This document shows, piece after piece, positions 25,294 through 62,587 of a DNA stretch of 64,000 nt. A program made the position numbers and the translations under genes. The notes under the pieces are model-generated. The model was given only the letters and a program-made list of their open reading frames with translations. It was not told where the DNA came from and ran no database searches. Numbering within the stretch: position 1 is the first letter of the stretch; each line of letters starts with the position of its first letter. Origin of the DNA: Bacteroidetes bacterium UKL13-3 (lineage in GTDB: Bacteria > Bacteroidota > Bacteroidia > UKL13-3); assembly GCA_001602415.1 (NCBI GenBank), contig CP012155.1:2874824-2938823 (forward strand), written 5' to 3'.

Positions 25294-25878
25294 GTGATAA
25301 CTCATATTGACGGAAAATTGGTTCAGAAAACCCCAACCTATGTGGTGATTGATTGTGGCGGAGTAGGTTATGCCATTAATATCTCCCTTCATACTTATGA
25401 CAAATTAAGCGACAACGAACGCCTTAAACTTTTTACTCATCAGGTGATTAAGGAAGATAGTCATACGCTTTACGGTTTTTTTGATGATGAAGAGCGACAA
25501 TTATTTGTGCAGCTCATATCGGTTAGTGGTGTTGGTCCCAACACTGCCCGCCTGATGTTATCCTCTTTAAAACCTTCTGACATTAAACAAGCAATAACCA
25601 CAGCCAACTGGGCGTTAATTAAAACCGTTAAAGGTATTGGCGAAAAAACAGCACAAAAAGTGGTTATTGACTTAAAAAATAAGGTTAAAGGAGATGATAT
25701 TGCAGAAGGACTCTCGTTTGCAGGTTCAAAAAATGTATCAATGGAAGAAGCATTGGCCGCCTTGGTTATGCTTGGATTTTCTAAGGCTGAAGCTGAAAAA
25801 GGGCTTCAAAAAATTAGACAACAAAATCCACTATATACTGTAGAAGAGTTAGTAAAAAATACCTTAAAAATTCTTTGA
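25294..25878 (+). CDS. ruvA: Holliday junction DNA helicase subunit RuvA
   Basis: MITHIDGKLVQKTPTYVVIDCGGVGYAINISLHTY, with a HhH region. Confidence 0.9.
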   Translation: MITHIDGKLVQKTPTYVVIDCGGVGYAINISLHTYDKLSDNERLKLFTHQVIKEDSHTLYGFFDDEERQLFVQLISVSGVGPNTARLMLSSLKPSDIKQAITTANWALIKTVKGIGEKTAQKVVIDLKNKVKGDDIAEGLSFAGSKNVSMEEALAALVMLGFSKAEAEKGLQKIRQQNPLYTVEELVKNTLKIL

Positions 25879-25893
25879 TGGCGCATTTCTACT

Positions 25894-28800
25894 TTGCTAA
25901 GTAACTCTCGAAACACATACATATCATTTTCAGCAGTTGTAGCTATCTTCTTATCGGTGGCCTGGTCGGTTAGTGCCGAAACTTTTGTAGAAAAGGAAGA
26001 AACAAAACTGCGTAAAAAAATGTGGGGATTTGCCCCGCCCGACTCATTGTTGGGTGATTCTTCGCGCATAAAGCTACCCTACCCCATTAAAGATAGAAAA
26101 CCATACGAACGTACCACATCTAAGAATCCGCTCGACTTAGGCGAGCCGTCTAATATTAAGAACCGTTACGATCTTGATCCAGAAACAAACTCTTATAACT
26201 ACTCATCAAAAGTAGGAGGACAAGATTACCGCTTGCCAGCTTCGATGAGTTTAAAAGACCAGCTTAAAGAAGACGGAAAGCGTAAAAACAACGACTATTT
26301 CCGCCAGCGCTCGCAAGCCAACAACTTTGTTAGCGGAAGTGGTATTATTCCTCCTTTAAGGGTTGGTCCTAAAATTTTCGAAAAAATATTTGGAAGTGGC
26401 ATCATCGATATTAGGCCACGAGGTACAGCAGAACTCGTGTTTTCGGGAAACTTTAATACCGTGCGCAACCCAGCATTTGCTCCGCAGCAACAAACAATAG
26501 GGCAGTTCGACTTTAGACAAAAAATTCAGTTAAACGTGCAAGGTAGCATAGGCGACCGCATGAAGGTAAACATCAACTACGATACTGAAGCTACTTTTGA
26601 TTTCGAAAATCAGGTTAAGTTAGATTACAGTGGAAAGGAAGATGATATTATTAAAAAGATAGAGTTGGGAAACGTGAGTTTGCCTCTTAACTCCTCACTT
26701 ATTCAAGGAAGTCAAAGTTTATTTGGTATTAAAACCGTGATGCAATTTGGTAAACTTACCGTTACCACCATCATTACCCAACAACGAGGAAAAACTACTG
26801 AAACAGAAATATCAGGAGGTTCGCAAAGTACTAGGTTTGATATACAAGCTGATGCTTATGACATGAACCGTCACTATTTCTTATCTCACTATTTTCGTGA
26901 CAACTATGATGCCTGGCTGTCTAACCTTCCAATTATTGGATCGCCCATCATTATTAATCGTGTAGAGGTTTGGGTTACCAATCGGTCGGGGTCGTTTGAA
27001 GGATCACGTGATGTGGTTGGTTTTGCCGATTTGGGTGAATCCGACAAACGCGACAACAAAAAATGGGTTGTCACCAATCCGCAAGACATAGCACCAAATA
27101 ATACAACCAATAATTTATACGCTTACCTAAACGGAGAAACCCCACTAAACAGCAATAAAAGCGGACTACGTTCAGCACTTCAAGTGCAAAACGAATTGCA
27201 AAAAGATTTGCCAAGAACAACACTCCAACCCATTTCGCAGTATCAAGGTGTGAGTTATGCCCGTTTACTCTCACCAACTGAATATACTTTTAACCCTCGC
27301 CTAGGATACATCTCTTTAAATCAAGCACTCAATAATGATGATGTACTATGTGTAGCATACGAATATTCTTTTAATGGTCGTCCGTTAAAAGTTGGAGAAT
27401 TTACCACCGATGTTCCGCAAGACCCTAGCATACCTACCGTATTATTCACTAAAATGCTAAAAGGTCCTTCACTTCGCCCAGACTTACCTATTTGGGATTT
27501 AATGATGAAGAACATTTATTCGCTCGGTACTTTCCAACTTCAGCAAAAAGATTTCCGACTTAATATTGTTTATGCCGATGACCCATCGGGAGCTGACTTA
27601 AACTATTTACCGGTGCAAAACGAGCCTCAACTTACCGGTTTGCCTTTGGTGCGGGTGTTCAATTTAGATAACTTAAACACACAACAGGAGAAAGCTCCCG
27701 ATGGTAATTTTGACTTTATTGAAGGTGTTACTGTTAGCTCACAACAAGGACGAATTATTTTTCCCATGTTGGAACCCTTTGGAAACTATTTAACTAACAA
27801 GTTCGTGAACGACCGTTCGCGGGCACGCTATTATTCGTTTTATGAGTTGTATGACTCCACTCGCTTTGCAGCAGTTCAGCTACCTCAATATAATAAATTT
27901 TTCTTAAGAGGAATCTATTCGGGTAACTCAAGCTCCGAAATTTCTTTAGGACAAAGTAATATACCGAAGGGTTCGGTTAGAGTAACGGCCAATGGAGCTC
28001 CACTTACCGAAAACCAAGATTTTACAGTTGACTATATGTTAGGACGTGTAAAAATCATCAATACCGGATTACTTAACTCGGGCGCTGTTATTAAAGTTTC
28101 TTCCGAAAGCAATTCACTGTTTAGCGTGCAGCAAAAAACGTTGCTCGGCTCACGTTTTGATTATAAGGTTAACAATGACATTTTATTTGGTGGAACAATT
28201 TTATACCTCAATGAAAGGCCGCTTACACCAAAAGTAAATATTGGAGAAGAACCCATTAGCAACATGATGATTGGCTTAGATGGAACGTATACAAAAGAAT
28301 CACGATTGCTTACCAAATTGGTTGATAGGCTGCCTTTCATCGAAACTAAAGAGCCTTCCAACATAACCATTAAGGGTGAATATGCACAGCTTATTCCAGG
28401 AGTGCAAAGCTCACTCGCTAATAGTGGAACTGCTTATTTAGATGACTTTGAAGGAAGTGAAACACCTTTTGACTTACGATTGGGTAATAACTGGTTTTTA
28501 GCATCAACACCTCAAGGGCAATTGGATAAATTCCCTGAAACTGCAGTTACCAATAAACTTGATTACGGCTTTAAAAGAGCCAACCTTGCTTGGTACAGTA
28601 TTGCCAGTACCTTTTACATAAACAACGCACAAACCCCCACACATATTCAAAACGATGATGTACAATTATCAGATCATAGAGTGCGCCAAGTCGGGGTAAA
28701 CGAAATATATCCAAGCCGCCAAGTTCAAAGCGGCCAGCCAACCAATCTGCCAACTTTTGATTTATCATTTTACCCCAAAGAACGTGGCCCATACAATTAC

Positions 28801-31800
28801 ACAGTTGCTGGTTTAAACGCTGATGGAACACTAAAAAATCCAACACAGACCTGGGGTGGTATTATGCGTAAAATTGAACAAAATGATTTTGAAGCATCAA
28901 ATATTGATTATATTGAAGTTTGGATGCAGGATCCTTATTTAAGTAATCCCAATCCAGGAAATAAAGGTCAGTTGTATATTAACCTCGGAAATATTTCAGA
29001 AGATATTTTACGCGATAACAGACGTGCAGCCGAAAATGGCTTGCCACGCTCGGCCGATCCAACTTTACAGTATGTTGATACCACTGCTTGGGGAAGAATT
29101 GGCCGTCAGCCAGTTGTTAACTTTGCTTTTGATGCTGATCCTGCCATTCGCGCATTGCAGGATGTAGGTTTGGATGGATTTAATGACGATGGTGAAAGAA
29201 CTTATTTTGACACTTCTTACTTGGCAAAACTAGCCACAACCTTTGGTATAAACTCCCCCGCATACCAAAATTCCTTTTCAGACCCATCATTTGATAACTA
29301 CCATTACTATTTAGGCACAGCCGATTATGATCCTGCCCAATTGAGTATTTTGGATCGTTACAAAAAATACAACAAACATCAAGGAAATTCTCCAACACAA
29401 ACACAATCCACCGAACCTTTTGCTACATCGGCAACCAATATTCCCGATAATGAAGATATTAATCGTGATTACACCCTAAACGATATTGAAGAGTATTATC
29501 AATACAAAATTGATATTGATAAAGGACGTTTAATTGTGGGACAGAATTATGTTACAGATAGTATTGTTACACCTGATGTTCCGTTAAAAAATGGAAAAAA
29601 AGAATCTGTTACCTGGTATCAATTAAAAATTCCAATTCGCGAATATGAGAAACGTGTGGGTGAAATTTTAGATTTTAAATCTATCCGTTTTGTGCGTTTG
29701 TTCATGAGTGGATTTGAAAACGAGCAAGTACTTCGTTTTGGTGCTTTTCAGCTGGTACGTGCCGATTGGCGCAAATATCTAGGAAATCTTGAAGCAGGTA
29801 AAGAAGCAAAACCGAGCAACCCCGAAGATGATACACGTTTTGTGGTTTCAACGGTTAACATTGAAAAAAATAGGTTCCGCACTCCCATTCCGTATGTTGT
29901 GCCTGCGGGCATTCAGCGCGAAATAGATTTTAGTTCACCACAAGCCGTTCAGCAAAACGAGCAATCATTATCCGTATTGGTGTGTAATCTAAAAGATGGT
30001 GATGCGCGTGGGGTATTTAAAAATATCAAAACAGATTTGCGCCAATATGGTAAGCTTCGAATGTTTATCCATGCTGAAGGAGATCAAACCAACAATGGTG
30101 ATGTAACAGCATTTATCCGTTTAGGAACCGATTTAACCAACAACTACTACGAATTTGAAATTCCATTAACGATGACTCGGCCCGGACAGGCCTCTCCAGA
30201 GCAAATATGGCCTTCCGAAAATGAAATGATTATCGACTTGGAAGAGTTTATTAATACTAAAATTCAACGCACCAATGCTAATCATCCATTTACAACTCCG
30301 TATTACCGACAAGCGGGTAGGTTTAAATATACCGTTATTGGACTACCCGATTTAAGTAACTTAAGGGTGGCCATGCTGGGTATTCGTAACCCTCGGGCTA
30401 TTCCGGGTGCCGTAGATGATGGGTTACCTAAATGTACCGAAGTATGGTTTAATGAATTGCGAATGACAGAGTTTAACCAGCGAGGAGGTTGGGCTGCAAA
30501 TGGTTTAATACAAGCTAAACTTGCCGATTTCGCAAACGTCCGATTATCTGGAAGTGTATCAACCGTTGGGTTTGGTGGAATTGATAAGAAACTGAGTGAA
30601 CGTAATTTTGACGATCATTACCAATACGATATTCAAAGTAGTTTTGAGTTAGGGAAATTCTTTCCGAAAAATACTGGATTATCTATTCCGATGTTTGTAT
30701 CGTATGGTAATATTTTAGTTAGACCATACTACAATCCACTTAACCCAGACACAAGGCTGCAAAAAGAAATTGATGAAACAACCGACCCTCTTCGAAAAGA
30801 GAAACTCAAAGGAGCGTCTGATGATTTTACAGCCAAGAGAAGTATCAATTTTACGAATGTGCGCAAAAACAAAGTTGGACAAAACACCAAAAATCATTTT
30901 TACGATGTAGAAAATTTCAACTTCACCTATTCCTTTAATGAAACATTTAGGCGCAACCAAACGATGGAGTATTACCTCCAACAGAATTATAAAACAATGT
31001 CGGGATATAGCTACAATTTTAATCCTAAACCTTGGGAACCTTTTAGTAACATCATCAAATCAAAACAACTTTCTCTAATCAAAGACTTCAACCTTTATTT
31101 CAAACCTCAATCTTGGGGAGCTCGTTTGGAAACGGACAGAAGATATGGCGTTACGTTAGACCGTAGTAACGATAATTTAGGAATTAAACCACAGACCAAC
31201 TACGATAAGATGTATACCATGACGCGTTATTATGAATTCCGGTATGATATTTCAAAAGGACTAAAACTTGATTATAACGCAACTGCTCTTGCCCGTATTG
31301 ACGAGCCTTTGGGAAATATTGACAGCAACACACCCAATAAAAAGGATTCTATTTGGGATAACTTCTTAAAAGGTGGACGGTTGATGCAGTTTGACCAAAC
31401 TTCACGATTAAATTATTCCATTCCTATCAATAAAATCCAACCATTAAGTTGGATTACACCAACCTATACCTACACGGCAACTTACCAATGGAAACAGGCG
31501 CCACCAGCTGCCGATAGCCTAGGAAATACCTTATCAAACTCGCGTGCGCAGGCATTTAATACAAACTTCAACTTTACCATGTTGTACAATAAGGTTCCAT
31601 TTTTGCGCAATATTCTCAATCCAAATCAACCACGAAAACCTGCTCCTAAAAAAGAGGAAATTAAACTAGGCAAAGATGGCAAGCCGCTCAAAAACGCCAA
31701 GAAAGAAGAGAAGGAAAAAGAACCCGCCAAAAATCCACCAGTGTTGGTGTACACAATGAAAGTGTTGATGAGTTTGAAAAATGCATCTGTTGCCTACAAT

Positions 31801-33096
31801 GTTACCGAAGGAACAATTTTACCCGGCTTCAAACCTCGTCCGCAATACTTAGGACAAAATTTTGATTCGGATGGACCGGGATTTGACTTTATTCTAGGCT
31901 CTCAAGATCCCGATTTTAGAAACCTCGCAGCACGCAACGGCTGGGTGAGTGCCGACCCTCGATTAACATCGTTTTATACAACAAACTATCAGGAAAACTT
32001 AACCGGAAGAGCTACATTAGAACCCATTACCGATTTGCGTATTGATTTGAATATTTCCCGTACCCAAACCATGAATTCATCTGTATTGTTTAGATATGAT
32101 GATACCACCGAAACGTTTAAGGATGTTAATCAACCATCGGTAACAGGAACTTATTCCATTACCTTTAACGCATGGGCAAGTGCCTTCTCAAAAGAAGGAA
32201 GCAATGGCAATACAGCCGTGTTTGAAACATTCCAAGAAAACAGAAAAGTAATAGCTAACCGTTTGGCTCAAGACCCTAACAAACCTTCACAAGGTCTTGA
32301 CTCACTAGACTTCCCTATTGGATATAGCCGTAATTCACAAGATGTATTGATACCTGCATTTTTAGCCGCCTACGGAGGCACAAATGCTGATGGTGTGAGC
32401 TTATCAGCCTTCCCTAAGATACCTGATGCAAACTGGAAAATTACGTATAATGGTTTATCTAAAATTGATCTCATAAAACAATACGCAAGTAATATTACCC
32501 TCAATCATCAATACACATCAACTTACAATATTGGTTCGTTTCAAACCATTTTAACTGATACAGGTACCAACAGAATTACGGGCGATTACGCACCACAATA
32601 CCAGATAAGGCAAATATCCATTACTGAGCGTTTTGGACCTTTCTTGGGTGTAGACATTACGTTTGTAAACAACATCTCAACCCGTTTGGAATACAAGCGC
32701 GATCGTACACTTAATTTTAACCTTACCAACGGACAACTAAACGAACAAAATGGGAGCGAATGGGTAATTGGTGCAGGATATAAAACAACCAAATTAACGA
32801 TTCCATTTATCCGCAGTAATGGCCGCCAATTGGTGTTAGAAAGTGATATTAATTTCCGGTTGGATTTTGGTATCCGCGACAACGTAACCAAAATTCGTAA
32901 TATTGACCGACCATCAAATGACCCCGTTCAAGGTCAACTCGTGTATACGTTACGACCAACGATTGATTACATGATTAGCCAACAGTTAATGTTGCGTATT
33001 TTCTATGATTACAGAAGAACTGATCCTAAAACATCCAACTCGTTCCCTACCATTATTCAGAGTGGAGGATTCTCTTTAAGATATACTATTCAGTAA
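25894..33096 (+). CDS. sprA: gliding motility / type IX secretion system translocon protein SprA
   Basis: 2400 aa secreted protein immediately downstream of ruvA. The size and composition (Asn/Tyr/Thr-rich beta-barrel) match SprA (~2400 aa in Flavobacterium). The predicted start is TTG at 25894, and the first in-frame ATG would remove the signal peptide. Confidence 0.85.
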   Translation: MLSNSRNTYISFSAVVAIFLSVAWSVSAETFVEKEETKLRKKMWGFAPPDSLLGDSSRIKLPYPIKDRKPYERTTSKNPLDLGEPSNIKNRYDLDPETNSYNYSSKVGGQDYRLPASMSLKDQLKEDGKRKNNDYFRQRSQANNFVSGSGIIPPLRVGPKIFEKIFGSGIIDIRPRGTAELVFSGNFNTVRNPAFAPQQQTIGQFDFRQKIQLNVQGSIGDRMKVNINYDTEATFDFENQVKLDYSGKEDDIIKKIELGNVSLPLNSSLIQGSQSLFGIKTVMQFGKLTVTTIITQQRGKTTETEISGGSQSTRFDIQADAYDMNRHYFLSHYFRDNYDAWLSNLPIIGSPIIINRVEVWVTNRSGSFEGSRDVVGFADLGESDKRDNKKWVVTNPQDIAPNNTTNNLYAYLNGETPLNSNKSGLRSALQVQNELQKDLPRTTLQPISQYQGVSYARLLSPTEYTFNPRLGYISLNQALNNDDVLCVAYEYSFNGRPLKVGEFTTDVPQDPSIPTVLFTKMLKGPSLRPDLPIWDLMMKNIYSLGTFQLQQKDFRLNIVYADDPSGADLNYLPVQNEPQLTGLPLVRVFNLDNLNTQQEKAPDGNFDFIEGVTVSSQQGRIIFPMLEPFGNYLTNKFVNDRSRARYYSFYELYDSTRFAAVQLPQYNKFFLRGIYSGNSSSEISLGQSNIPKGSVRVTANGAPLTENQDFTVDYMLGRVKIINTGLLNSGAVIKVSSESNSLFSVQQKTLLGSRFDYKVNNDILFGGTILYLNERPLTPKVNIGEEPISNMMIGLDGTYTKESRLLTKLVDRLPFIETKEPSNITIKGEYAQLIPGVQSSLANSGTAYLDDFEGSETPFDLRLGNNWFLASTPQGQLDKFPETAVTNKLDYGFKRANLAWYSIASTFYINNAQTPTHIQNDDVQLSDHRVRQVGVNEIYPSRQVQSGQPTNLPTFDLSFYPKERGPYNYTVAGLNADGTLKNPTQTWGGIMRKIEQNDFEASNIDYIEVWMQDPYLSNPNPGNKGQLYINLGNISEDILRDNRRAAENGLPRSADPTLQYVDTTAWGRIGRQPVVNFAFDADPAIRALQDVGLDGFNDDGERTYFDTSYLAKLATTFGINSPAYQNSFSDPSFDNYHYYLGTADYDPAQLSILDRYKKYNKHQGNSPTQTQSTEPFATSATNIPDNEDINRDYTLNDIEEYYQYKIDIDKGRLIVGQNYVTDSIVTPDVPLKNGKKESVTWYQLKIPIREYEKRVGEILDFKSIRFVRLFMSGFENEQVLRFGAFQLVRADWRKYLGNLEAGKEAKPSNPEDDTRFVVSTVNIEKNRFRTPIPYVVPAGIQREIDFSSPQAVQQNEQSLSVLVCNLKDGDARGVFKNIKTDLRQYGKLRMFIHAEGDQTNNGDVTAFIRLGTDLTNNYYEFEIPLTMTRPGQASPEQIWPSENEMIIDLEEFINTKIQRTNANHPFTTPYYRQAGRFKYTVIGLPDLSNLRVAMLGIRNPRAIPGAVDDGLPKCTEVWFNELRMTEFNQRGGWAANGLIQAKLADFANVRLSGSVSTVGFGGIDKKLSERNFDDHYQYDIQSSFELGKFFPKNTGLSIPMFVSYGNILVRPYYNPLNPDTRLQKEIDETTDPLRKEKLKGASDDFTAKRSINFTNVRKNKVGQNTKNHFYDVENFNFTYSFNETFRRNQTMEYYLQQNYKTMSGYSYNFNPKPWEPFSNIIKSKQLSLIKDFNLYFKPQSWGARLETDRRYGVTLDRSNDNLGIKPQTNYDKMYTMTRYYEFRYDISKGLKLDYNATALARIDEPLGNIDSNTPNKKDSIWDNFLKGGRLMQFDQTSRLNYSIPINKIQPLSWITPTYTYTATYQWKQAPPAADSLGNTLSNSRAQAFNTNFNFTMLYNKVPFLRNILNPNQPRKPAPKKEEIKLGKDGKPLKNAKKEEKEKEPAKNPPVLVYTMKVLMSLKNASVAYNVTEGTILPGFKPRPQYLGQNFDSDGPGFDFILGSQDPDFRNLAARNGWVSADPRLTSFYTTNYQENLTGRATLEPITDLRIDLNISRTQTMNSSVLFRYDDTTETFKDVNQPSVTGTYSITFNAWASAFSKEGSNGNTAVFETFQENRKVIANRLAQDPNKPSQGLDSLDFPIGYSRNSQDVLIPAFLAAYGGTNADGVSLSAFPKIPDANWKITYNGLSKIDLIKQYASNITLNHQYTSTYNIGSFQTILTDTGTNRITGDYAPQYQIRQISITERFGPFLGVDITFVNNISTRLEYKRDRTLNFNLTNGQLNEQNGSEWVIGAGYKTTKLTIPFIRSNGRQLVLESDINFRLDFGIRDNVTKIRNIDRPSNDPVQGQLVYTLRPTIDYMISQQLMLRIFYDYRRTDPKTSNSFPTIIQSGGFSLRYTIQ

Positions 33097-36648: not shown

Positions 36649-37218
36649 TCAAATCCCCCTGAGGTATGCGTCAATTACTTTTGGAAAATGAGTCATCTCC
36701 AATAACGATATTTTGGTAGCAATAGAGTCTAATGTATCCAACGGAGTTACCTTAAACGATTGCTGAAACAGATGTTCTCCTTCATCAAATTTTTCGTTTA
36801 CCAAATGTATGGTAATACCATGTTCGGTTTCTTTTTGGGCAAGCACTGCCTCATGAACATGATGTCCGTACATACCTTTACCCCCAAACTTTGGCAACAA
36901 TGCCGGATGTATGTTGATGATTTTATTGGGAAATTGTTGAACCAAATAAGAAGGTATTAATAATAGAAAACCGGCAAGAATAATTAGATCGGGCTGGTAT
37001 TGCGCAATCAATTGTAAAAACTCCCCTTCGCTATTAAGTTGTTTGCGGGTGATTAACTCCACCGGTACATTCCATTTTGCCATTTTGGAAATAACTCCCG
37101 CTTGTGGATTATTACAAAACAATCCAACTACTTTTACTTCATCATTTTTTGCAAAATACTGGCAAATATTATCGGCATTGGTGCCACTTCCCGAAGCAAA
37201 AATGAGTAGCCGTTTCAT
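36649..37218 (-). CDS. purN: phosphoribosylglycinamide formyltransferase
   Basis: MKRLLIFASGSGTNADNI...NIHPALLPKFGG, the formyltransferase SLLP motif region. Confidence 0.9.
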   Translation of the reverse strand: MKRLLIFASGSGTNADNICQYFAKNDEVKVVGLFCNNPQAGVISKMAKWNVPVELITRKQLNSEGEFLQLIAQYQPDLIILAGFLLLIPSYLVQQFPNKIINIHPALLPKFGGKGMYGHHVHEAVLAQKETEHGITIHLVNEKFDEGEHLFQQSFKVTPLDTLDSIATKISLLEMTHFPKVIDAYLRGI

Positions 37219-38706
37219 TTAAAATTCCAATTCGTTAATCAGTGCTTTTCGAAACAACGAATCTATGTTTCCGTTTCCGTTCAACCGATTCAGCGGAAGT
37301 GTACACACAATCAAATCAGTTTTTCCGGTGCCCACTTTAATGCGCTTGCTCAATACTGTTGAAGCACCCATCCAGGCAGTTGTTCCGTTTACGTTTTGTG
37401 CAAGAATATTTGCCCTGCATGTTGAATCGTAAGTGAACGCTCCCGAAGGTGTGCTAAAGGTAACAAAAGGGCGCGCACTCGATAAGATAGAAGTAGATTT
37501 TAACACAGGCCAGCCACTACCTGCAATATGTGGGTACATTAATTCGCCAATATTCATTCGAAGTGTTACTCCGGCAGGCGGCACCACCAATTCTTGTATA
37601 GGTGTAAAACTGAAAAAAATGGAATTATACGGAAAATCATTAGCCATTTCGCATACCAAAAACATACGACCACCTTGTTGAAAAAAATTGGCCGTAACCA
37701 ATTGCGCCAAGCCAAGGGTGCTGTTTGGATTATCGCTAAACCACACAATGCGCTTATAAAATTCCAACGTTTTAACGATGGTAAACACATCATCGGGCAA
37801 GTCGGAAGCAATACTGATTACCGAATCAAACTGGTTGTATCCGGAACCTAAATTTGATAGTTGTGCATTGTAAAACGTTTGAACCGGACCTTTGGTACTG
37901 TAGTCATTAATCAACAACAAATCAGACTTTGGTCTTTTAATAAAAATAGAATCTTTGGCCCAGGCTGATTTTAATCCCACTCTATCAACTGCACGGATGT
38001 ATATTTTATTTAACTGATTGTACAAAACGCCATTTAACTTATCGGGAAAAGGAACAGAACGGTTGTTTTGATACACGAACAAAACAGTATCAAACACCCC
38101 TGCTGTAACTTGTGCTACAAAACTAGCAGCAATGCTGTTTCCGGTAATAACTAAAGGTGTTTTAGTCGTATCATTCAATACGATTTCGATGTTTTGAATA
38201 TCCAATGGTCCGTCAATATCCGTTGCGGTCCAATAATACCTAAAAGCCGGAAACGCGCTTGTACGTCTGCCCCTAGAATAATCCATTTCCAAAGCAGGTG
38301 CAGAATTTTTTACAGGAAATACCATGATGGCAGGTGTAGGATCTTTCTGCCCCAAATTATCGACTGCTCTCACGTAAATAGGTAAATTTCCACTTTGTTG
38401 CCCTACCGGCAAATTGAGCAAAAATGAGCCCTTTTGATTTTTTGTAAAAGTCCATGTTTGCTGGTTATCGATGGATACTTCATACCCACTGATAAAACCC
38501 TTTTTCGATTCGCCCCACCAGCGTGCTTCAACAGTTGTGGAAAGCAAATTATTGGTATCTCTTCTTATGGAGTCAACAACGGTGTAGGTTTCGGGAAGGG
38601 TTTGGGTATTCTCTGTTCCTTCAAAATCTTTACGACACGAAACGGCAACCACACCGATAAGCACACAAAATAATAGTAGTTTACGCATGAACCTTTGGGT
38701 TTTCAA
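37219..38706 (-). CDS. hypothetical lipoprotein
   Basis: 495 aa, signal peptide with lipobox (VAVSC). No recognised catalytic motifs. Immediately follows purN with no gap. Confidence 0.45.
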   Translation of the reverse strand: MKTQRFMRKLLLFCVLIGVVAVSCRKDFEGTENTQTLPETYTVVDSIRRDTNNLLSTTVEARWWGESKKGFISGYEVSIDNQQTWTFTKNQKGSFLLNLPVGQQSGNLPIYVRAVDNLGQKDPTPAIMVFPVKNSAPALEMDYSRGRRTSAFPAFRYYWTATDIDGPLDIQNIEIVLNDTTKTPLVITGNSIAASFVAQVTAGVFDTVLFVYQNNRSVPFPDKLNGVLYNQLNKIYIRAVDRVGLKSAWAKDSIFIKRPKSDLLLINDYSTKGPVQTFYNAQLSNLGSGYNQFDSVISIASDLPDDVFTIVKTLEFYKRIVWFSDNPNSTLGLAQLVTANFFQQGGRMFLVCEMANDFPYNSIFFSFTPIQELVVPPAGVTLRMNIGELMYPHIAGSGWPVLKSTSILSSARPFVTFSTPSGAFTYDSTCRANILAQNVNGTTAWMGASTVLSKRIKVGTGKTDLIVCTLPLNRLNGNGNIDSLFRKALINELEF

Positions 38707-38821
38707 TCTGCAATAATAACGTATGTAAGGTTAAGTAAAAATTAAATGCTTGAGTAAAATACTCCCGCACTCTTACAAAACATAAATTACTCTGCAAACA
38801 ATTCAAAGAATTTCTTAACGC

Positions 38822-39040
38822 AAAATACTTATCTTTTTAACAACCCATTGTTCATTTTCTCCCAGTATTCGGAGCATATACAATCCTTCTGCGATGTTGG
38901 ACACATCAATGGTTTGTGTTTCCGCATTGCCTTTATACGCAAGGTTGCCTGTTGTATTCCAAAGTTCAAAGGCTTTATGTGGATAAGAGGATTGAATATG
39001 AAGGATGGTGCTTACTGGATTGGGATAAATAAGAAACTAA
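38822..39040 (-). pseudogene. orphan T9SS C-terminal sorting domain remnant, without start codon or upstream body
   Basis: Minus-strand translation gives IYPNPVSTILHIQSSYPHKAFELWNTTGNLAYKGNAETQTIDVSNIAEGLYMLRILGENEQWVVKKISILR*. This is the canonical type-A T9SS CTD pattern (YPNP...idvSnlaeGlYilri...K.ikk). The frame is closed by a stop immediately upstream, at the hairpin CTCTGCACTgaaaGTGCAGAG. Confidence 0.55.
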
Positions 39041-39095
39041 ATTACTCTGCACTGAAAGTGCAGAGGTTTAGAGGAAGAAGAATGAAATTCTTCTT

Positions 39096-39314
39096 TCACG
39101 TCTCGAGAATCATTGTCCCATCAGTATCGTTAGTCGAATCTCGATGATGATCTAAGTACTTTTGTACCATATCATCGGTTATGTTACCTGTACTCCATGC
39201 TCCGTAACCTGAGGCCCAAAAGTGACGACCCCAGTAACGTTTCTCTATCCAAGGATACTCCTGTTGTAACTTACGTGATGTATGACCTTTCAAGCGCTTT
39301 ACCAAATCAATCAC
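39096..39314 (-). pseudogene. IS200/IS605-family Y1 transposase (TnpA) C-terminal fragment
   Basis: 72 aa: VKRLKGHTSRKLQQEYPWIEKRYWGRHFWASGYGAWSTGNITDDMVQKYLDHH matches the C-terminal half of IS200 TnpA, including the catalytic-Tyr region. The N-terminal HuH-containing half is absent from every frame. Confidence 0.7.
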
Positions 39315-39338
39315 ACTTAGTTTAGGAGGGTATTCTGT

Positions 39339-39371
39339 TCACGCTAACATCTTGTTAGTGTGAATTCAGAA
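39339..39371. repeat. 33-bp hairpin-containing repeat TCACGCTAACATCTTGTTAGTGTG(A/T)ATTCAGAA, copy 1
   Basis: Second direct copy at 39561-39593 with 1 mismatch. Contains the hairpin CACGCTAACA-tctt-TGTTAGTGTG. Confidence 0.7.
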
Positions 39372-39481
39372 CGGCAAACGTTGAATGCATCGGAATGCTT
39401 AAGCGCAGCACACACCAAATGAGGCATAATTGTGAGGTTATTTAAAACAGTTAAGATAGGATTAGCATGGGGAATTCTTCT

Positions 39482-39509
39482 TTCGCACTAACGAGACGTT
39501 AGCGCGAAC
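39482..39509. repeat. palindromic repeat TTCGCACTAACGAGACGTTAGCGCGAAC, copy 2 of the 19606 element
   Basis: 27/28 identical to 19606-19633. Confidence 0.7.
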
Positions 39510-39560
39510 TTGGCAACTAATCCTTTTAACCTCAACTGAGGCTTCAATCAACTCCCCAGC

Positions 39561-39593
39561 TCACGCTAACATCTTGTTAGTGTGTATTCAGAA
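39561..39593. repeat. 33-bp hairpin-containing repeat, copy 2
   Basis: Direct repeat of 39339-39371, 222 bp downstream. Confidence 0.7.
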
Positions 39594-39731
39594 GTCAATT
39601 GCTGAACGTATCGGTTAAACAGGGAAGATACACGGAAGGTAAGTCCGCGACAACGATAATTTGCCATCTACTCTGTGTAATTTTTCTTCATTAATACATC
39701 AGTGTAATCTGTGGCAACCCTTCCCGAAAGA

Positions 39732-41210
39732 CTACACCTCCTTGCGCAACCTTGCTACCGGAATATTTAATTGCTCACGGTATTTAGCTACGGTTCTGCG
39801 GGCAATATTGTATCCTTTGTCTTTCAGTATTTCCATCAATTTTTCATCGGGCAACGGCTTGTGTTTGTCTTCTGCTTCAATGGCATCTTTCAAAATTCTT
39901 TTCACCTCGCGGCTACTTACTTCTTCGCCATCATCGGTTGCTATACCTTCGCTAAAAAAGAACTTTAGCGGAATGGTGCCAAAATCAGTTTGAACATATT
40001 TGCTATTGGCAACTCGCGAAATAGTAGAAATATCCATTCCAACTTTTTCGGCAATATCTTTCAAAATCATGGGGCGCATTTTGGTTTCGTCACCCGTTTC
40101 GAAGTAGGCATACTGCTGCTGCAAAATCGCATTCATCGTCATCAACAAAGTATTCTGACGTTGTTTAATGGAATCGATAAACCACTTAGCTCCATCCAAT
40201 TTTTGCTTAATAAACTGAACGGTTTGTTTCAGTTCTTTACCGGGCTTTTCTGTTTTGTCATAAGCTTTTAGTGTTTCCATGTAACTGCGGCTAATGCGCA
40301 AATCGGGAGCGTTGCGCGAGTTGAGTAGCACTTCAAGTTTGCCCTCATTTTCCACCAAAATAAAATCGGGTGTAATATACTGTGGCTTCGAATCGGAAAC
40401 AGATTCACCCGGTTTAGGATTAAGGTGTGTAATTACCTTAATGGCATCTTTAAGTTGCTCATCTGTAATTTTGAGGGAACGAGTAAGTTTTTCGTAGTGC
40501 TTTTTGGTAAAATCATCGAAGTAATCGCGCAGCAAAACCTCAGCTATTCGCACCCCATCACGTGCGTGGTCCTTACGTTTTAGTTGCAACAATAAACACT
40601 CTTGTAAGCTAGTAGCGGCAATACCGGCAGGCTCTAGTGCTTGAATTTTTACCAAACAGGTTTTAAGTTCATCAATACTTGCCTCAATGTTTTGTGAAAA
40701 CGCCAAATCGTTTTGAATGGCTTCTAATGGTCTGCGCAAATAACCATCATCATCAATGGTGCCGATGATTTGGTTGCCCATTATTTGTTCGCGTTCATTT
40801 TCGGCAATGGCATTAAACTGCTCTGCTAATAGCTCATGAAAACTAGTTGTTTCGGCCAGGGGCATTTCCTTTTTATCGTCATCAGGACCTTCATCGCTCA
40901 GGTGAAATCCCTCCGAATCATAATCATCATTTACATATTCCTTGATATCGAGGGTTTCATCCGTTAAATAATCTTCCACCGAAACATTGTCCTCTTGCCC
41001 ATCGTCTGCCGTTTCAGCCTCTTTAATATCCGACTCGAGCGGAGCAGCTGCATCCTCGTCTTCCGACTTTACCAATGCTGGGTTCTCAATGAGTTCGTCA
41101 TCAATTCGTTGCTGTAAATCAACCGTGTTGAGTTGCAACAATTTAATAAATTGTATTTGCTGTGGCGACAGCTTTTGCAGCAGTTTTTGTTGTAATCCCT
41201 GTTTTAACAT
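39732..41210 (-). CDS. rpoN: RNA polymerase sigma-54 factor
   Basis: N-terminal Gln/Leu-rich activator-interacting region (MLKQGLQQKLLQKLSPQQIQFIKLLQL). C-terminal RpoN box ARRTVAKYRE. Confidence 0.9.
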   Translation of the reverse strand: MLKQGLQQKLLQKLSPQQIQFIKLLQLNTVDLQQRIDDELIENPALVKSEDEDAAAPLESDIKEAETADDGQEDNVSVEDYLTDETLDIKEYVNDDYDSEGFHLSDEGPDDDKKEMPLAETTSFHELLAEQFNAIAENEREQIMGNQIIGTIDDDGYLRRPLEAIQNDLAFSQNIEASIDELKTCLVKIQALEPAGIAATSLQECLLLQLKRKDHARDGVRIAEVLLRDYFDDFTKKHYEKLTRSLKITDEQLKDAIKVITHLNPKPGESVSDSKPQYITPDFILVENEGKLEVLLNSRNAPDLRISRSYMETLKAYDKTEKPGKELKQTVQFIKQKLDGAKWFIDSIKQRQNTLLMTMNAILQQQYAYFETGDETKMRPMILKDIAEKVGMDISTISRVANSKYVQTDFGTIPLKFFFSEGIATDDGEEVSSREVKRILKDAIEAEDKHKPLPDEKLMEILKDKGYNIARRTVAKYREQLNIPVARLRKEV

Positions 41211-47034: not shown

Positions 47035-48864
47035 TTATTCTTTTTTGAGAAGCACTTTACTTGAAAATACGCTACCTGTAGAATATGTAACTGTAACAAT
47101 ATAGTATCCCTCTGAAGGAAGCATCTCCAAGTTAAGTTTGGTATCGAAATTATCCACTACTCTTTCCAACAACACTCTACCCTGCATGGAAGCAATTCTC
47201 ACATTTATGGGCGCATTCTTCATGTCAGGATTCACTTGAATATATTCACCAGCCGGATTAGGATAAACCAAAGGGCTCAAATTCTTTGTCATATCATATT
47301 GATTCGAAATACCAACAGGAGAGCCATTCGTATTGGTTATAAAATATAATCTGCCATATGGAGAGCTAAAATCACGAATATTGCGAGTTGCAACGATATC
47401 CGGTCTACCGTCCCTGTTGAAATCTGCAATGGTCAACCCAAATGGATTGGTCATCACAACAGGCATTCGCTCTGAAGAATAATCCGCTTCTGATATATAC
47501 CTGGTGTCCGTGGCTGTATTCCAATTAATCAGTAAAGCACTGGTCCAATTGGTTGTGATGATATCGTTCTTCCCATCACCGTTTAAATCCGCAATCTTAA
47601 TCTGATAATATTGAGTAAACTGATCATTCACCTGTGACGGTTTAATAAACAATCGCTCGAATCCCGTTGTATCCATGATATTCAATTGCTGTTTATTAAG
47701 TAGAATCAACACAAATGAATCTTGCATCGTTACCGCCAAATCATTTTTTCCATCATCATTTAAGTCGCCTGAAGTTACGTAATATGGAGATTTAGGGGTA
47801 ACAATAAAAACAGGCTGACTAAAACTAATTGCTCCATTAGGTTGAGAAGTATTTTTAAATAGTGCAATCGTTTTGTTGAATCCTTGTGTGACAAGAATAT
47901 CATCTTTCCCATCCCCTGTAAGGTCAACAACACAAATACCAAAAGGGCCGTCATTACTTGCCACTCCGGTAGCTAATTCTATAGTATCGGTAAAAGCAGT
48001 TTCGGTAATAGTCTTAGACGATAGATTGTTTTTGATCAAGATTATTTTAGATATACCAGGAGAAGAATTAGCCGATACAACGATATCGGGTAAACCATCT
48101 AAATTTAAATCTGATGTAACAACCTCCGCTAGTTGATTTGCGTTTAGGGTTAAACCTACAGCCTGACCGAATGAGGTCGAATCCAGTCCTCCTGCTGTAG
48201 CTTTGTTTTCGAATAGATATATTCTTTTTCCCATTTTTGACGTACACAAAATATCCTGCTTGCCATCTCCATTAATATCACTTACATAAACTGCATAAGC
48301 TGGAGTATCCATTCTGAGCTTGATACCGGGCTCAAAAGAATTATCATCCAATACACCGCCTATATATGTCAGAGGCATCTTGTTTCGCATCACCGTTAAT
48401 TGTTTCTCTGCATCACTTGTTACGATAATATCCATCCTTCCATCATTATCAATATCTCCATTACAAACGTACTGGGGTGTTCTGGGGATAAAGGCCTTTT
48501 GCACTTCAACGCGAGACAATAACATCTGATCTGGCAATGGTCCGTAGAATGTGGTCGAAAGAAATTGTTTTGAAACGGCTTGCTTGCCACCCGTAAGTAC
48601 ACTCACTCAACCATAGGTTGCTCCGATGGGAACAGTAAATTCAAGCATTTTTTCATTACCGGAAATAGTTTTTGCTTCCGCTCCCTCAAAAAATACTCTG
48701 TTCTGCTGAAAAGCAGAATTAAACCCATTACCATAAATCGTAACAGAAGTTAAGGGTTGGGCATGATAGGTTGAAAGGCTGTCTATCTGAATGCTTTGTG
48801 CAGAAGAATTAGATGCTATTAACGTAAAACCGAAAAGAAATAACAATACGGTTGACTTTTTCAT
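47035..48864 (-). pseudogene. FG-GAP/VCBS-repeat T9SS cargo gene interrupted by an in-frame TGA at 48607-48609
   Basis: An 85-aa ORF with signal peptide (48610-48864) and a 523-aa GTG-initiated ORF (47035-48606) share one frame, separated by a single TGA. The sequence reads through coherently (...TVPIGATYG*VSVLTGGKQAVS, IPT/TIG-like). The body has FG-GAP repeats (DINGDGK.D) and a C-terminal T9SS CTD (YPNPAGEYIQV...YYIVTVTYSTGSVFSSKVLLKKE). Confidence 0.65.
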
Positions 48865-48924: not shown

Positions 48925-50055
48925 TCCCCCCTTGTCGTGACAAATTTATTTTTGTTCTTTAGCCAAACATCGCTGATTGTTTGTCGTGCTCAAGATTCGA
49001 ACATTTCTCCTAACGGCCAAAACATTGAACTTCTTTACAGCAGAACAAGATGTATTGAATGTACGTTTAATGGGTGCATATCTGTGAGGCAAGATGTAAG
49101 TCGTGTTTCTGACCTTAATGGATCCAGAATTGTAAATGGTCCTATCGAGATATCTGTTTACAAATTCCCTTGCGCTTGTAATCAAGGACCTGTGATCCCA
49201 GAAATTAAAGACGAAAGAAGATTTCCACCATACCCTTAGGCAAGATTAAATCAAGTTGTGGTAAATGGAACCGCTGCACCAATCAGAGGATTAACAAGGG
49301 ATAGAATAAACATTCCTTCAAGCACAACAACCTTCTATAATGTATTTAAAGCTGATAGAAGTGATGATGAGTTATTCGATATGCCGGAGGCTGACTTCAT
49401 CCGGCTTCTAGATAAAGATTGGCCGAGTAAATATCCTAAGTTATCCTATAGACAAAATGCAAATGGAGACTTAGTTCCTTTTTATGAAACTGTACCTCAA
49501 ATTGCTTGTTGACTCGCCCCTTCTGGTTTCCTTACAGATGGAGGTAACTCTGAACAATTCAACGAATTTTTGAATAAATTACGCGATATGCGTGCCAATG
49601 GAACCAGCACTGACGAATTAGACGCCTGGCTTTTGAAAATTGAAAATGTTTTGAATGGATTACGATCTGGACAACAGGTCATTGTCAGAAATGGAACAAT
49701 AGATATTGGAAAGGGGAATAGGCACTTATACTATGGGGACTGTCGCTGGGACTTCGAATTTTGGTTTAACGGAGGAGATTATTTAACTCTTAAAGAGTTA
49801 CTACCTGTTTCAATCGAAGAAAGTACTCAACCAACAGACTATTCCCAAACTGATTTAGTTTGGAGAAACACTTACCCAATTACCCATATCACTGCAACTA
49901 GACTTAATAATGGTGAAATGATTGCTGATGAAGATTATACTCTGGAAAAAGATATTAAAATAAACATCGCCTCTCTGAATTCAGGAGATATTCTGGCAGT
50001 AACAGCAGTATTATTCAATGGAGAAATCGTCAGTAAAAAGATTTTTATTCCTTAA
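48925..50055 (+). pseudogene. degraded ORF (three same-frame pieces separated by TAG 49237-49239 and TGA 49510-49512) with T9SS-CTD-like C-terminus
   Basis: Frame 1 is open for ~377 codons with two internal stops and no ATG at its head. The pieces initiate only with GTG/GTG/TTG. The last piece ends INIASLNSGDILAVTAVLFNGEIVSKKIFIP, which resembles a T9SS CTD. Confidence 0.35.
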
Positions 50056-51508: not shown

Positions 51509-52879
51509 TTACTCTGTTAATTTAATAATTCTTTTTAAGTTGACTGCAAAAATTGCCAGTGCACCCTGCATTTGCATATTACTAATGCCATAGGATATTG
51601 CTCTATCGTATCCGTGTATGTTTTTTAACTCACTATTTTTTGCTTCAATTTTATAACGATGCTTTGATTTTTCTTTATAATAATCGGTTTCTTGAAAGAC
51701 TGTTTGTTCTTGATGTAGGTCTGATTTAATTGTTAACGAATAGGTTTTTGTTTTTGCTCCTTCTTTATAACAACCCTCTTTTAAAGGGCATGTTTTACAT
51801 TTGTCTGTATCAAAGTAGTATGTTACTGCTTGGTTTTTTCCAATATTTTTTGTGCCTTGACGAGCCTTTTTTAATGCCATATGACCAGCAGGGCAAACAA
51901 ACATATCTGCATCTTTATTGTAATCAAATTTATCTTCATCCTTTCTTGTGCCTTGTGTGATTGAGGGATTTAGCCTTGCTACTATTTTAATATTTTGCTC
52001 TGTTGTAATTTTAAGATTTTCTTTTCCTGAATAGGCGGTATCGCCTATTATGGTATCCACATCAATTCCATTTTCTTGACTCATTTGTAAAAGTTTTGTT
52101 AACTCTGGCCCATCTCCTTTTTCACCCGATGTTACTACTGCTGCTGTAATAATGCGCTCTTCGGTCATGGCTATATGTGTTTTGTATCCAAAGAATGAGC
52201 TATCAGCTGATTTGTGCCCAATTCTTGCATCAGTATCTTTTGATAGGATGAAATTTTCTTGCGTATCTTCTACCGTTTCTTTTAGTAAATTGAGTTTTTC
52301 TTTTACACCAGGTATTGAACTAATAGTTGGTTCATTTTCTATTCGTTGCTCTAACTCTTTGCAATATGCTAACTCCTTTTCCAAATCATTATCAATGTTC
52401 TTTTGTGGCATATTTTCTTTCCATTCCTCATCAAACAAATACACCGCTTTCCTGAGTAACTTAGAGCGTTCACGTAATACTTCTATTGCTGAAAATGGAT
52501 TTGATCTTGATAGCGTATGTGTGGCATCTACTATAATTGACTTTGAACGAATGATGCCTTTTTCAACTGCTATACTGACTGTTTTGTTTATTAATAAATC
52601 TAACAAGTCGGTGTCTTTTAAACATAGTTTTCTAAACTTGGTCAATGAACTAGAATTTATTACTTCCTCTTCTGGTGTCATTTCTAAAAAGTATTTAAAT
52701 GACATATCGTATCGTGAACGCTCAACTACATCAGATATTGTATAAATTGTTTTCAAAAGTAAATACTTGAACATGCGAACTGGACTTTCCGCCATTCGGC
52801 CATTATTCATGCAATATTTATTTACTAGCTCCTCGTATACAAAGGAAAAGTCTACTAATTCATTAATTTTTCTAAGCAA
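51509..52879 (-). mobile_element. IS1182/IS5-like DDE transposase gene, 5'-truncated (N-terminal ~30 codons replaced by a stop)
   Basis: DUF772/InsH-N motif VRMFKYLLLKTIYTISDVVERSRYDMSFKYFLEM. The frame upstream reads *DLIVPKHNLLRKINELVD, matching the canonical IS1182 N-terminus (DDLIPEDH..R.VNEVID) but cut by TAA. Only a TTG start is available. Confidence 0.7.
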
Positions 52880-60865: not shown

Positions 60866-61972
60866 CTAATATGTCCTTTTTTTCCACTGCATTTTTACCG
60901 GTAGTATGAAAAAAATCTGTGTGCTAATAGCAATGATATTAGCGTATACATCATACAGTAATACGAGTAAAAAATGTTGGCGCATGCTTAGTTTGTATTG
61001 CAGCCACAGCACAAACAGTGATTGTATCCCCCATTTAATACCGTACAGTTGCACAGCTAGCAAGGGTTGGTAAAAAAACAATATGATAATAGCTGGAAGG
61101 AAAGATCCTAATATTCCAAATAAAATCCACCAATACAGAGGAAGTTCTTTGGCACCCATTAACCAACGTTTGCGCTGATGCATAAGTTGTACAAAAGAGG
61201 TAACCGGGCCCGAAATATTTAAACTGTTGCGGGTGATAATATTTTTTGTTTTCCAACCTTTTTTACGCACTTCCCGATAGAGTTTGTAATCTTCCGTTAC
61301 CGAAAAATCCAACCCTTCATATCCTCCCACACTTGTGTATGCCTCTTTACTTATAGCCATATTGTTTCCAACCGCAGTGCAGCCCATTCCAATATTATCA
61401 AAACCTTTGAGCAAACCCATAAAATACAACCAATCTAACCCCATTAATTGCGCAACAATTGGTTTATCGTGCACCATTGTTAATCCGGAAACAATGGCAA
61501 GTTTATCATCCGTAAAATGTGAAACCAACTCCTTTGCCCACTGTTGGTTTACAATAATGTCGGCATCGGTTATGGCATAAATAGTTCCGGTAGCTTTTTG
61601 TGCAAGATGTGCCAACACATTTGCTTTTCCCCTTGCATTGCCCAGTGTATGGGTAATATTCAAGAGTTTAAATTGTGGCTTATCTTTTATGAATGCTGTA
61701 ACCAAAGCCGCTGTTGCGTCCTCCGACTGGTCGTTTCCAACCAAAATTTGTATGTTATTTTTGGGGTAATTAAGTTCGTTGAGTGCTTGCAAACATTGAA
61801 TAATGTGCTGCTCTTCATTGCGTGCAGCAATCAGTACCGATAATAAAGGAAGTTCTGCATCAGCCATTTGTTTTGTGTCATCTTCTTTGAAGGCAGCTAC
61901 TCCCCAAAACAACACAACTTGAATAACAATATATGCAGCAACAATTCCTAAACAAATAAACGAAAGCATCAT
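60866..61972 (-). CDS. family 2 glycosyltransferase with C-terminal TM helices (NodC/IcaA/PgaC-like processive GT2)
   Basis: LSVLIAARNEEQHI (DxD-region start), ITDADII, QRKRWLMG (the QxxRW motif of processive beta-glycosyltransferases). Several C-terminal TM segments. Confidence 0.75.
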   Translation of the reverse strand: MMLSFICLGIVAAYIVIQVVLFWGVAAFKEDDTKQMADAELPLLSVLIAARNEEQHIIQCLQALNELNYPKNNIQILVGNDQSEDATAALVTAFIKDKPQFKLLNITHTLGNARGKANVLAHLAQKATGTIYAITDADIIVNQQWAKELVSHFTDDKLAIVSGLTMVHDKPIVAQLMGLDWLYFMGLLKGFDNIGMGCTAVGNNMAISKEAYTSVGGYEGLDFSVTEDYKLYREVRKKGWKTKNIITRNSLNISGPVTSFVQLMHQRKRWLMGAKELPLYWWILFGILGSFLPAIIILFFYQPLLAVQLYGIKWGIQSLFVLWLQYKLSMRQHFLLVLLYDVYANIIAISTQIFFILPVKMQWKKRTY

Positions 61973-62587
61973 CTATAATAATTTATTAAACGTAAATCCT
62001 TTGTCCGAAAGTTGTTTAAGCACTTCGGGCAATATTTGTTGTAATTGCCTTTTAGCCTTTTCACTATCATGAAACACAATGATTGAACCGTTTTGTGCTG
62101 CATTTACGGTTGCCTGTATAGCTTGCTCAATGTTAATGTTCGAATCATAATCGCGGGTTAGAATATCCCACATAATGATGCTATATCCTTGTCGTTTAAG
62201 CTTGCCAATTTGCAGTGGACTTATTCTTCCGTATGGCGGGCGAAACAATTTGCTCTTTACCAAAGTGGCGCAGCGCGAAACGTTATCGTAATAGCGTTGG
62301 TTGTCTGTTGTCCAACCTTTAAGGTGATTGTATGTGTGGTTGCCCGTTGCATGTCCCTGGTCGATAATAGAATGATAGGTTCCAGGAAATTTGGTAACGT
62401 TTTCGCCCACACAAAAAAAAGTAGCTTTGGCGTTATGTTGTTTTAAGATGTTTAGCACCCAATGGGTAATTTCGGGGTGCGGACCATCATCAAAGGTTAA
62501 AAACACAACCTTATCACTTGTTTGAACCTTCCAAGTAAGGGATGGCACTAATAAAGGAAGAAAAGATGGTAATGTGTGTTTAAACAT
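61973..62587 (-). CDS. polysaccharide deacetylase (CE4, NodB-like)
   Basis: VFLTFDDGPHPEITHWVLNILKQHNAKATFFCVGEN...HTYNH are the NodB-homology motifs. No gap to the GT2 gene. Confidence 0.8.
   Translation of the reverse strand: MFKHTLPSFLPLLVPSLTWKVQTSDKVVFLTFDDGPHPEITHWVLNILKQHNAKATFFCVGENVTKFPGTYHSIIDQGHATGNHTYNHLKGWTTDNQRYYDNVSRCATLVKSKLFRPPYGRISPLQIGKLKRQGYSIIMWDILTRDYDSNINIEQAIQATVNAAQNGSIIVFHDSEKAKRQLQQILPEVLKQLSDKGFTFNKLL

Follow-up and report, generated by a model that had tools for sequence, protein, structure and literature searches.

A T9SS surface-protein gene of UKL13-3 is interrupted at codon 86 by what is very probably a genuine single-base nonsense substitution (Arg86 to stop) that arose once, is now a common allele beside the intact one and is likely to be null for surface display. 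The gene lies in the window, the whole 64,000-nucleotide stretch of contig CP012155.1 analysed here, and its parts, together with two genes of the same window that bear on its reading, are as follows.

47035..48864, minus strand: the interrupted gene in full; its 610 codons count both the internal TGA and the final TAA
48610..48864, minus strand: N-terminal 85-codon ORF, with the signal peptide (residues 1–23) and TIG-domain strands 1 to 5
48607..48609, minus strand: in-frame TGA at codon 86; ancestral codon CGA (Arg)
47035..48606, minus strand: downstream 523-codon ORF from the GTG abutting the TGA, without a signal peptide
48571..48786, minus strand: IPT/TIG (Ig-like) domain, residues 27–98, spanning the stop (Pfam PF01833)
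47332..48519, minus strand: seven FG-GAP/VCBS repeats, residues ~116–511, with DxDxDG-type motifs (Pfam)
47047..47268, minus strand: T9SS type-A C-terminal sorting domain, residues 533–606 (PF18962, TIGR04183)
25294..25878, plus strand: ruvA, which ends in a genuine TGA; sprA/sov begins 15 bp on, in the same frame
25894..33096, plus strand: sprA/sov, the T9SS outer-membrane translocon (TIGR04189 equivalog, 2557 bits)

The interrupted gene starts with the ATG at 48864 on the minus strand and ends with the TAA at 47037–47035. The 85-codon ORF, the TGA and the 523-codon ORF share one frame, and apart from the codon-86 TGA no second stop or frameshift was found within the gene. Codons 1–85 encode MKKSTVLLFLFGFTLIASNSSAQ...TVPIGATYG, and the local text at the stop is GGT TGA GTG AGT GTA (...TYG * VSV...), in which the GTG abuts the TGA (TGAGTG). 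It is the T at 48609 on the minus strand, nucleotide 256 of the gene, that is derived. The 523-aa ORF is recorded in GenBank as AMS27775.1 (AEM51_12845; UKL13-3 genome CP012155), annotated as a separate hypothetical protein CDS, to which the protein-cluster member P0129 is identical. Other ORF pairs in one frame with a single stop between them, inspected from a window-wide list, are adjacent genes (ruvA/sprA and deacetylase/glycosyltransferase), with the small divergent ORF at 49237 as the one further exception, and the same-frame pair at 60866–62587, considered as a second interrupted gene, consists of two ordinary adjacent ORFs with differing sequences, their identities judged by eye.

When the two ORFs are joined, the encoded protein consists of a signal peptide, an IPT/TIG domain, a seven-bladed FG-GAP propeller and a T9SS type-A C-terminal domain (CTD). 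The signal peptide is of the Sec type (residues 1–23, MKKSTVLLFLFGFTLIASNSSAQ), as judged by eye from the sequence and from a helix in the structural model; its absence from the downstream ORF was likewise judged by eye. Domain scans, run on the two ORFs joined with an X placed at codon 86, gave a TIG match (PF01833; Pfam) at residues 27–98 with an E value of 6.5e-7 and 29.7 bits against a cut-off of 20.9. Pfam matches in the propeller comprise seven stretches of FG-GAP and five of FG-GAP_3, and the Asp and Gly columns of the FG-GAP repeats are invariant in an alignment of 30 homologues. The CTD is matched by Por_Secre_tail (PF18962; Pfam) at residues 533–604, with 37.7 bits against a cut-off of 27, and by the type-A sorting domain TIGR04183 (NCBIfam), with 36.9 bits against a cut-off of 23. 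The initial annotation, made from the DNA alone, had described a T9SS cargo gene with FG-GAP repeats and a CTD, an IPT-like domain coherent across the stop, and 85-aa and 523-aa ORFs in frame and split by the TGA at 48607–48609 alone; the scores above the Pfam and NCBIfam cut-offs, the TIG match spanning codon 86 and the minus-strand reading uphold all of this.

Modelled with AlphaFold (mean pLDDT 88.2, pTM 0.81), the intact protein has a helix at residues 3–18 and β-strands at residues 26–30, 40–46, 56–59, 62–69 and 73–77 in its N-terminal part. Codon 86 sits inside the β-strand 84–91 of the Ig-like domain, in a block with a pLDDT of 96 (AlphaFold, DSSP), after which the model continues with two further strands of the Ig domain, the seven-bladed propeller and the CTD sandwich. 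The SprA/Sov protein of the same window, a product of 2400 aa, covers profile positions 1–2319 of 2319 in TIGR04189, so the organism has the secretion system that the cargo would use. Gliding-motility genes are annotated in the published description of the UKL13-3 genome (PMC5248499).

The sense codon replaced by the TGA was identified from homologues and near-identical contigs. The best match in a large protein collection, P0001, is an intact 609-aa protein with 99% identity at full coverage; the next best, P0002 (46%) and P0003 (42%), are the only other homologues above 30% identity. All three have Arg at the codon-86 position (TYGRVSV, TYGRVSV and SYGRIHV, respectively), encoded by CGA in the four contigs carrying P0001. 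In metagenome contigs ~99.8% identical to the window, the 609-aa gene is uninterrupted and codon 86 is CGA (Arg); the CGA carriers number 17 intact contigs (L001–L004, L020–L026 and L033–L038). Over 1830 nt the intact contigs differ from the window by the C-to-T change at codon 86 and about 3–4 other positions, the four contigs with P0001 differing at four positions, of which the C-to-T change is one. The intact allele occupies the same locus, flanked by recJ. Among 30 homologues of the same architecture, the codon-86 column holds Pro in 19, Arg in 5, Tyr, Glu, Phe, Ala and Ser in one each, and a gap in one; none of these homologues ends at codon 86, as they would have to in the refuting case set out in the initial annotation, a residue being present in 29 of the 30. 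Read from these alignments, the change is a C-to-T nonsense mutation, CGA (Arg86) to TGA, and of the two explanations that the initial annotation had put forward, a nonsense mutation or an assembly error, it is the first that CGA in the near-identical contigs and Arg in the nearest homologues bear out.

The gene family is not positionally conserved, as the neighbourhood of P0002 is non-syntenic: its locus (L030 1623–3319) adjoins phage terminase genes (Terminase_3/6N and Terminase_2) and a divergent AraC-type regulator of 191 aa. A 191-aa divergent ORF upstream of the interrupted gene, considered as a homologue of that regulator, has no similarity to it (E = 63).

In the window allele, ribosomes would be expected to stop at codon 86 and to release an 85-aa fragment with the signal peptide and an Ig domain without the last two of its seven strands. 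Re-initiation at the adjacent GTG would yield a product beginning VSVLTGGKQ... and devoid of a hydrophobic leader. T9SS substrates first cross the inner membrane through the Sec pathway, and the GTG-started product would be unable to reach the periplasm, where T9SS reads the CTD, leaving that CTD useless. With no signal peptide on the downstream product, the TGA allele is, on its sequence, likely to be functionally null for surface display. We infer that the protein is lost, and that the gene is either dispensable or its loss advantageous.

A leaky allele, in which UGA read-through or re-initiation at the GTG keeps partial function and so explains why the stop is tolerated at high frequency, seems distinctly unlikely. 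The stop and the GTG are directly adjacent, but a product re-initiated there would lack the signal peptide needed ahead of T9SS export. UGA is generally the leakiest stop codon, and low-level read-through may occur here, but read-through levels are usually ~1% or less, and no stimulatory structure follows this UGA. Further disabling mutations are absent from the downstream 523 codons in all of the ~14 distinct TGA contigs, but divergence is too low (6 variable sites in 1830 nt) for missing decay to carry weight, and it neither proves nor excludes residual function.

The TGA allele recurs well beyond the UKL13-3 assembly. An exact look-up of the 85-aa ORF, which can match only where a stop follows codon 85, found it on record in 48 index blocks (JGI, ENA, NCBI and Logan assemblies), and five intact protein variants looked up in the same way were found in 6, 3, 9, 5 and 6 blocks, where blocks may count the same data held by several archives. 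The 90%-identity cluster of P0001 mixes 609-aa and 523-aa members; among the listed members, 523-aa forms are on 17 contigs (10+3+2+2) and 609-aa forms on 17. Two 143-aa members, P0122 and P0123, considered as further disruptions, are gene fragments at contig ends. Gene sequences were read in 33 cases, 16 with TGA and 17 with CGA, a sample shaped by the queries in which the window and two contigs fetched twice are counted, with alleles scored per assembly rather than from reads and from metagenome contigs, which represent a consensus and may be chimeric. The TGA is carried by at least 14 distinct contigs of other assemblies or archives, among them the MAG contig DQEA01000010.1 (L009; NCBI GCA_003525585.1), which is identical to the window over all its 11,957 bp. 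In two JGI accession series (Ga0453... and Ga0334/0335...) the TGA and CGA alleles occur together; further contigs come from the series Ga0480... (JGI), KRAE22-1 (ENA) and SRR2742.... A literature search on the metagenome sample accessions returned no match.

It is accordingly very improbable that the stop is an assembly or sequencing error in a strain whose true codon is sense and whose gene is intact. Errors are plausible in general in the UKL13-3 genome (CP012155; 3,236,529 bp), an early 112x PacBio HGAP metagenome assembly annotated with 211 pseudogenes (PMC5248499). Against this, the 48 index blocks and the identical MAG contig show that the TGA is not an assembly error, the same stop being found in many independent assemblies. 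PacBio errors are, moreover, typically homopolymer indels, unlike the substitution seen here.

Programmed recoding, with the UGA read as selenocysteine or another residue through reassignment or a SECIS element and the full-length protein made, has a similarly slight chance of being correct. The interrupted gene resembles bacterial selenoprotein genes (UGA and SECIS) in having an in-frame UGA with the frame open and undamaged beyond it. It differs from them in structure, residue and population. No SECIS-like hairpin was found 3′ of the UGA (68 nt beginning immediately ahead of the UGA; z = −1.3, a fold matched by 17 of 200 shuffles), and Rfam at gathering thresholds gave no match in the whole 64-kb window. 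The ancestral or orthologous residue is Arg or Pro, with no Cys in the codon-86 column of the 30-homologue alignment, and the CGA sense allele coexists with TGA in one population. TGA is the rarest stop among the 30 ORFs of at least 200 codons in the window (TAA 20, TAG 9, TGA 1), but these ORFs are all intact under the standard code (code 11) rather than peppered with TGA, and the TGA that ends ruvA is genuine: RuvA_C matches to profile position 46 of 47 at the last residue, directly before the TGA. The TGA at 25876, ahead of 2400 open codons, is this ruvA stop, after which sprA follows. The 64-kb window contains no tRNA genes. With no SECIS-like fold, no Rfam match, a genuine TGA in ruvA and an ancestral Arg, selenocysteine insertion and reassignment (codes 4 and 25) are unsupported, in agreement with the initial view that TGA is a true terminator in this window, that codon reassignment is unlikely and that no selenocysteine-insertion element would be present.

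Least credible is a reading of the ORFs as independent genes, one for a small secreted protein of 85 aa and the other for a protein of 523 aa: GenBank has the latter as a CDS and gene callers call both ORFs, but a single TIG domain spans the junction, the stop falls inside a β-strand, homologues neither end nor start there, the ~99.8%-identical sister contigs have one 609-aa gene, and, in the known pathway, a T9SS CTD does not function on a chain that has no signal peptide. The TIG domain across the stop and the Arg in homologues instead indicate one gene with an Arg-to-stop substitution.

The origin of the Arg-to-stop substitution can be placed in an alignment of ~12 kb around the gene (n = 30 sequences), in which diversity is very low. 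All TGA contigs have a core haplotype in common (−877C, −173G, 281A and 317T), which is also present in the intact contigs L020 and L021; these two are the nearest intact relatives and match the commonest TGA haplotype throughout the gene except at nucleotide 256. The TGA alleles form one haplogroup, in about half of the assemblies, nested within the intact diversity. This nesting indicates that the stop arose once, on a haplotype near that of L020 and L021, and also establishes in which direction the codon changed. Variants private to the haplogroup occur at sites −2541, −2408, −373, 970, 4140, 5209 and 5909, and it is also seen with 563T and 1754G, as a result of recombination or of chimeric consensus contigs. 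Since it has variants of its own, the allele is not brand new relative to the shallow coalescent of the species; the initial description of the mutation as recent is apt for its absolute divergence, which is young, and less so for an allele that has already diversified and reached roughly half of the sampled assemblies. A four-gamete test suggested recombination between sites 256 and 563, a result that is not relied on because consensus contigs can be chimeric.

Several features of the surrounding region also vary among the contigs. In rpoN (L006 10250–11728; window about 39732–41210, minus strand), dense runs of synonymous differences occupy the 3′ half in L001/L024, L012/L017 and L022/L025, the polymorphism amounting to 32 synonymous sites and 1 non-synonymous; judged by their pattern, these runs look like one or more tracts acquired by homologous recombination with a more divergent lineage in an otherwise near-clonal population. 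The region beyond rpoN is strain-variable and the alignment breaks down there (L006 11896–12450; L027 8248–8496; window about 37200–39700): some contigs have a 184-aa ORF and a methyltransferase, in L027 a 489-aa ORF comes after a Y1 transposase, and the window has a 489-aa ORF without a Pfam match at 37219–38688. On the other side, a DDE transposase (DDE_Tnp_1_6, DDE_Tnp_1 and DUF772) lies at 51509–52810 on the minus strand, ~2.6 kb upstream of the gene. A large number of independent metagenome contigs stop ~2.6 kb before the gene start, near the beginning of this transposase, and L033 reads into the same transposase family; the upstream IS is probably repeated and breaks short-read assemblies. 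Closer to the cargo gene, at ~48930 (−66 from the ATG at 48864), assemblies differ in the length of a G6/G5 homopolymer, with G5 in most intact-allele contigs and one TGA contig, which may be real variation or a homopolymer assembly artefact. A TAAATTTG motif upstream of this tract resembles the Bacteroidota −7 promoter element.

The polymorphism within the gene is entirely non-synonymous, with 6 of 6 sites changing the protein (R86*, K94R, F106Y, P188L, V324L and E585G) and none synonymous, and two more protein variants in the cluster are also amino-acid changes (L74I and one Gly-to-Val). Six flanking genes of named families (FeS-assembly, NlpC/P60, recJ, TsaD-family, Omp85 and asnS) together have 7 sites that are synonymous and 5 that are not. 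This set excludes rpoN, cyt-b5 and the small hypothetical ORFs, the last of these carrying 3 further non-synonymous sites. The comparison of the gene with its flanks gave a one-sided Fisher p of 0.025, on small numbers. Both allele classes thus appear to be weakly constrained or under diversifying selection, and the all-non-synonymous pattern fits a dispensable or a targeted surface protein. Adaptive or balanced loss, in which a single-origin null haplogroup is kept near half frequency alongside the intact allele across more than one sample series, is conceivable but rather unlikely. If it were correct, an agent targeting the protein would be implied, for example through a role as a phage receptor, through grazer recognition or through a trade-off in attachment to cyanobacterial colonies, and the all-non-synonymous polymorphism would mirror diversifying selection acting on that surface.

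Another nonsense change is found ~630 bp from the codon-86 TGA, at window 49237–49239 on the plus strand, in an ORF at 48937/49192..49512 (plus strand). This small, divergent, upstream ORF is called with 106, 142 or 191 aa elsewhere and has no Pfam match; its TGG (Trp) is TAG in the window and the identical MAG contig L009 only, and its standing as a real gene is doubtful. Both nonsense changes (48609 and 49237–49239) are G to A on the plus strand of the window.

In its signal peptide, Ig-like domain, FG-GAP repeats and CTD, the intact protein is like other T9SS type-A CTD cargo of Bacteroidota (TIGR04183/PF18962, FG-GAP/VCBS propellers). The UKL13-3 allele differs in being cut at codon 86, with a CTD-bearing part that has no signal peptide; the two signals that mark such cargo are thus on one chain in the intact allele and not in that of the window. 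No homologue in the large protein collection was close enough to point to a particular ligand or function. The best Foldseek matches of the model (E ~1e-11) were to eukaryotic proteins, chains of the KICSTOR complex (9v6e_B and 9o5a_G) and CRTAC1 (9etn), the latter also the sole PDB sequence match; they have the seven-bladed FG-GAP propeller fold, but the similarity is of fold only, at 13–16% identity, and the domain context and biology differ. Weaker matches were to IPT/TIG and propeller surface proteins of Bacteroides described as ‘auxiliary nutrient binding’ (3tc9, 4hw6 and 3hrp), which we take to be PUL lipoproteins of NHL type, and to PorZ (5m11). These are Bacteroidota surface proteins that likewise have an N-terminal Ig-like domain followed by a propeller, but their TM-scores are low (0.27–0.29 on the query) and they are without FG-GAP calcium motifs.

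Premature stop codons that segregate naturally in a surface adhesin are known from inlA of Listeria monocytogenes. The two cases are alike in that one nonsense substitution, in a surface protein that is secreted or anchored, is common in the wild beside the intact allele; they differ in protein family, secretion route and organism. As a natural loss-of-function variant of an uncharacterised T9SS cargo gene, the UKL13-3 stop is of an ordinary kind, and it has no bearing on the evolution of the genetic code or on recoding.

For annotation, AMS27775.1 (523 aa) is to be corrected to the end part of a 609-aa T9SS cargo gene interrupted by a nonsense codon, and marked as a pseudogene or allele, for which an intact reference is available in metagenomes. 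For the biology of this uncultured freshwater Bacteroidota species, the interrupted gene provides a clean, datable loss-of-function allele of a surface protein, of single origin, widespread and coexisting with the intact gene, and as a marker it may help to follow strain dynamics through lake time series or to test for selection on the loss of surface proteins.
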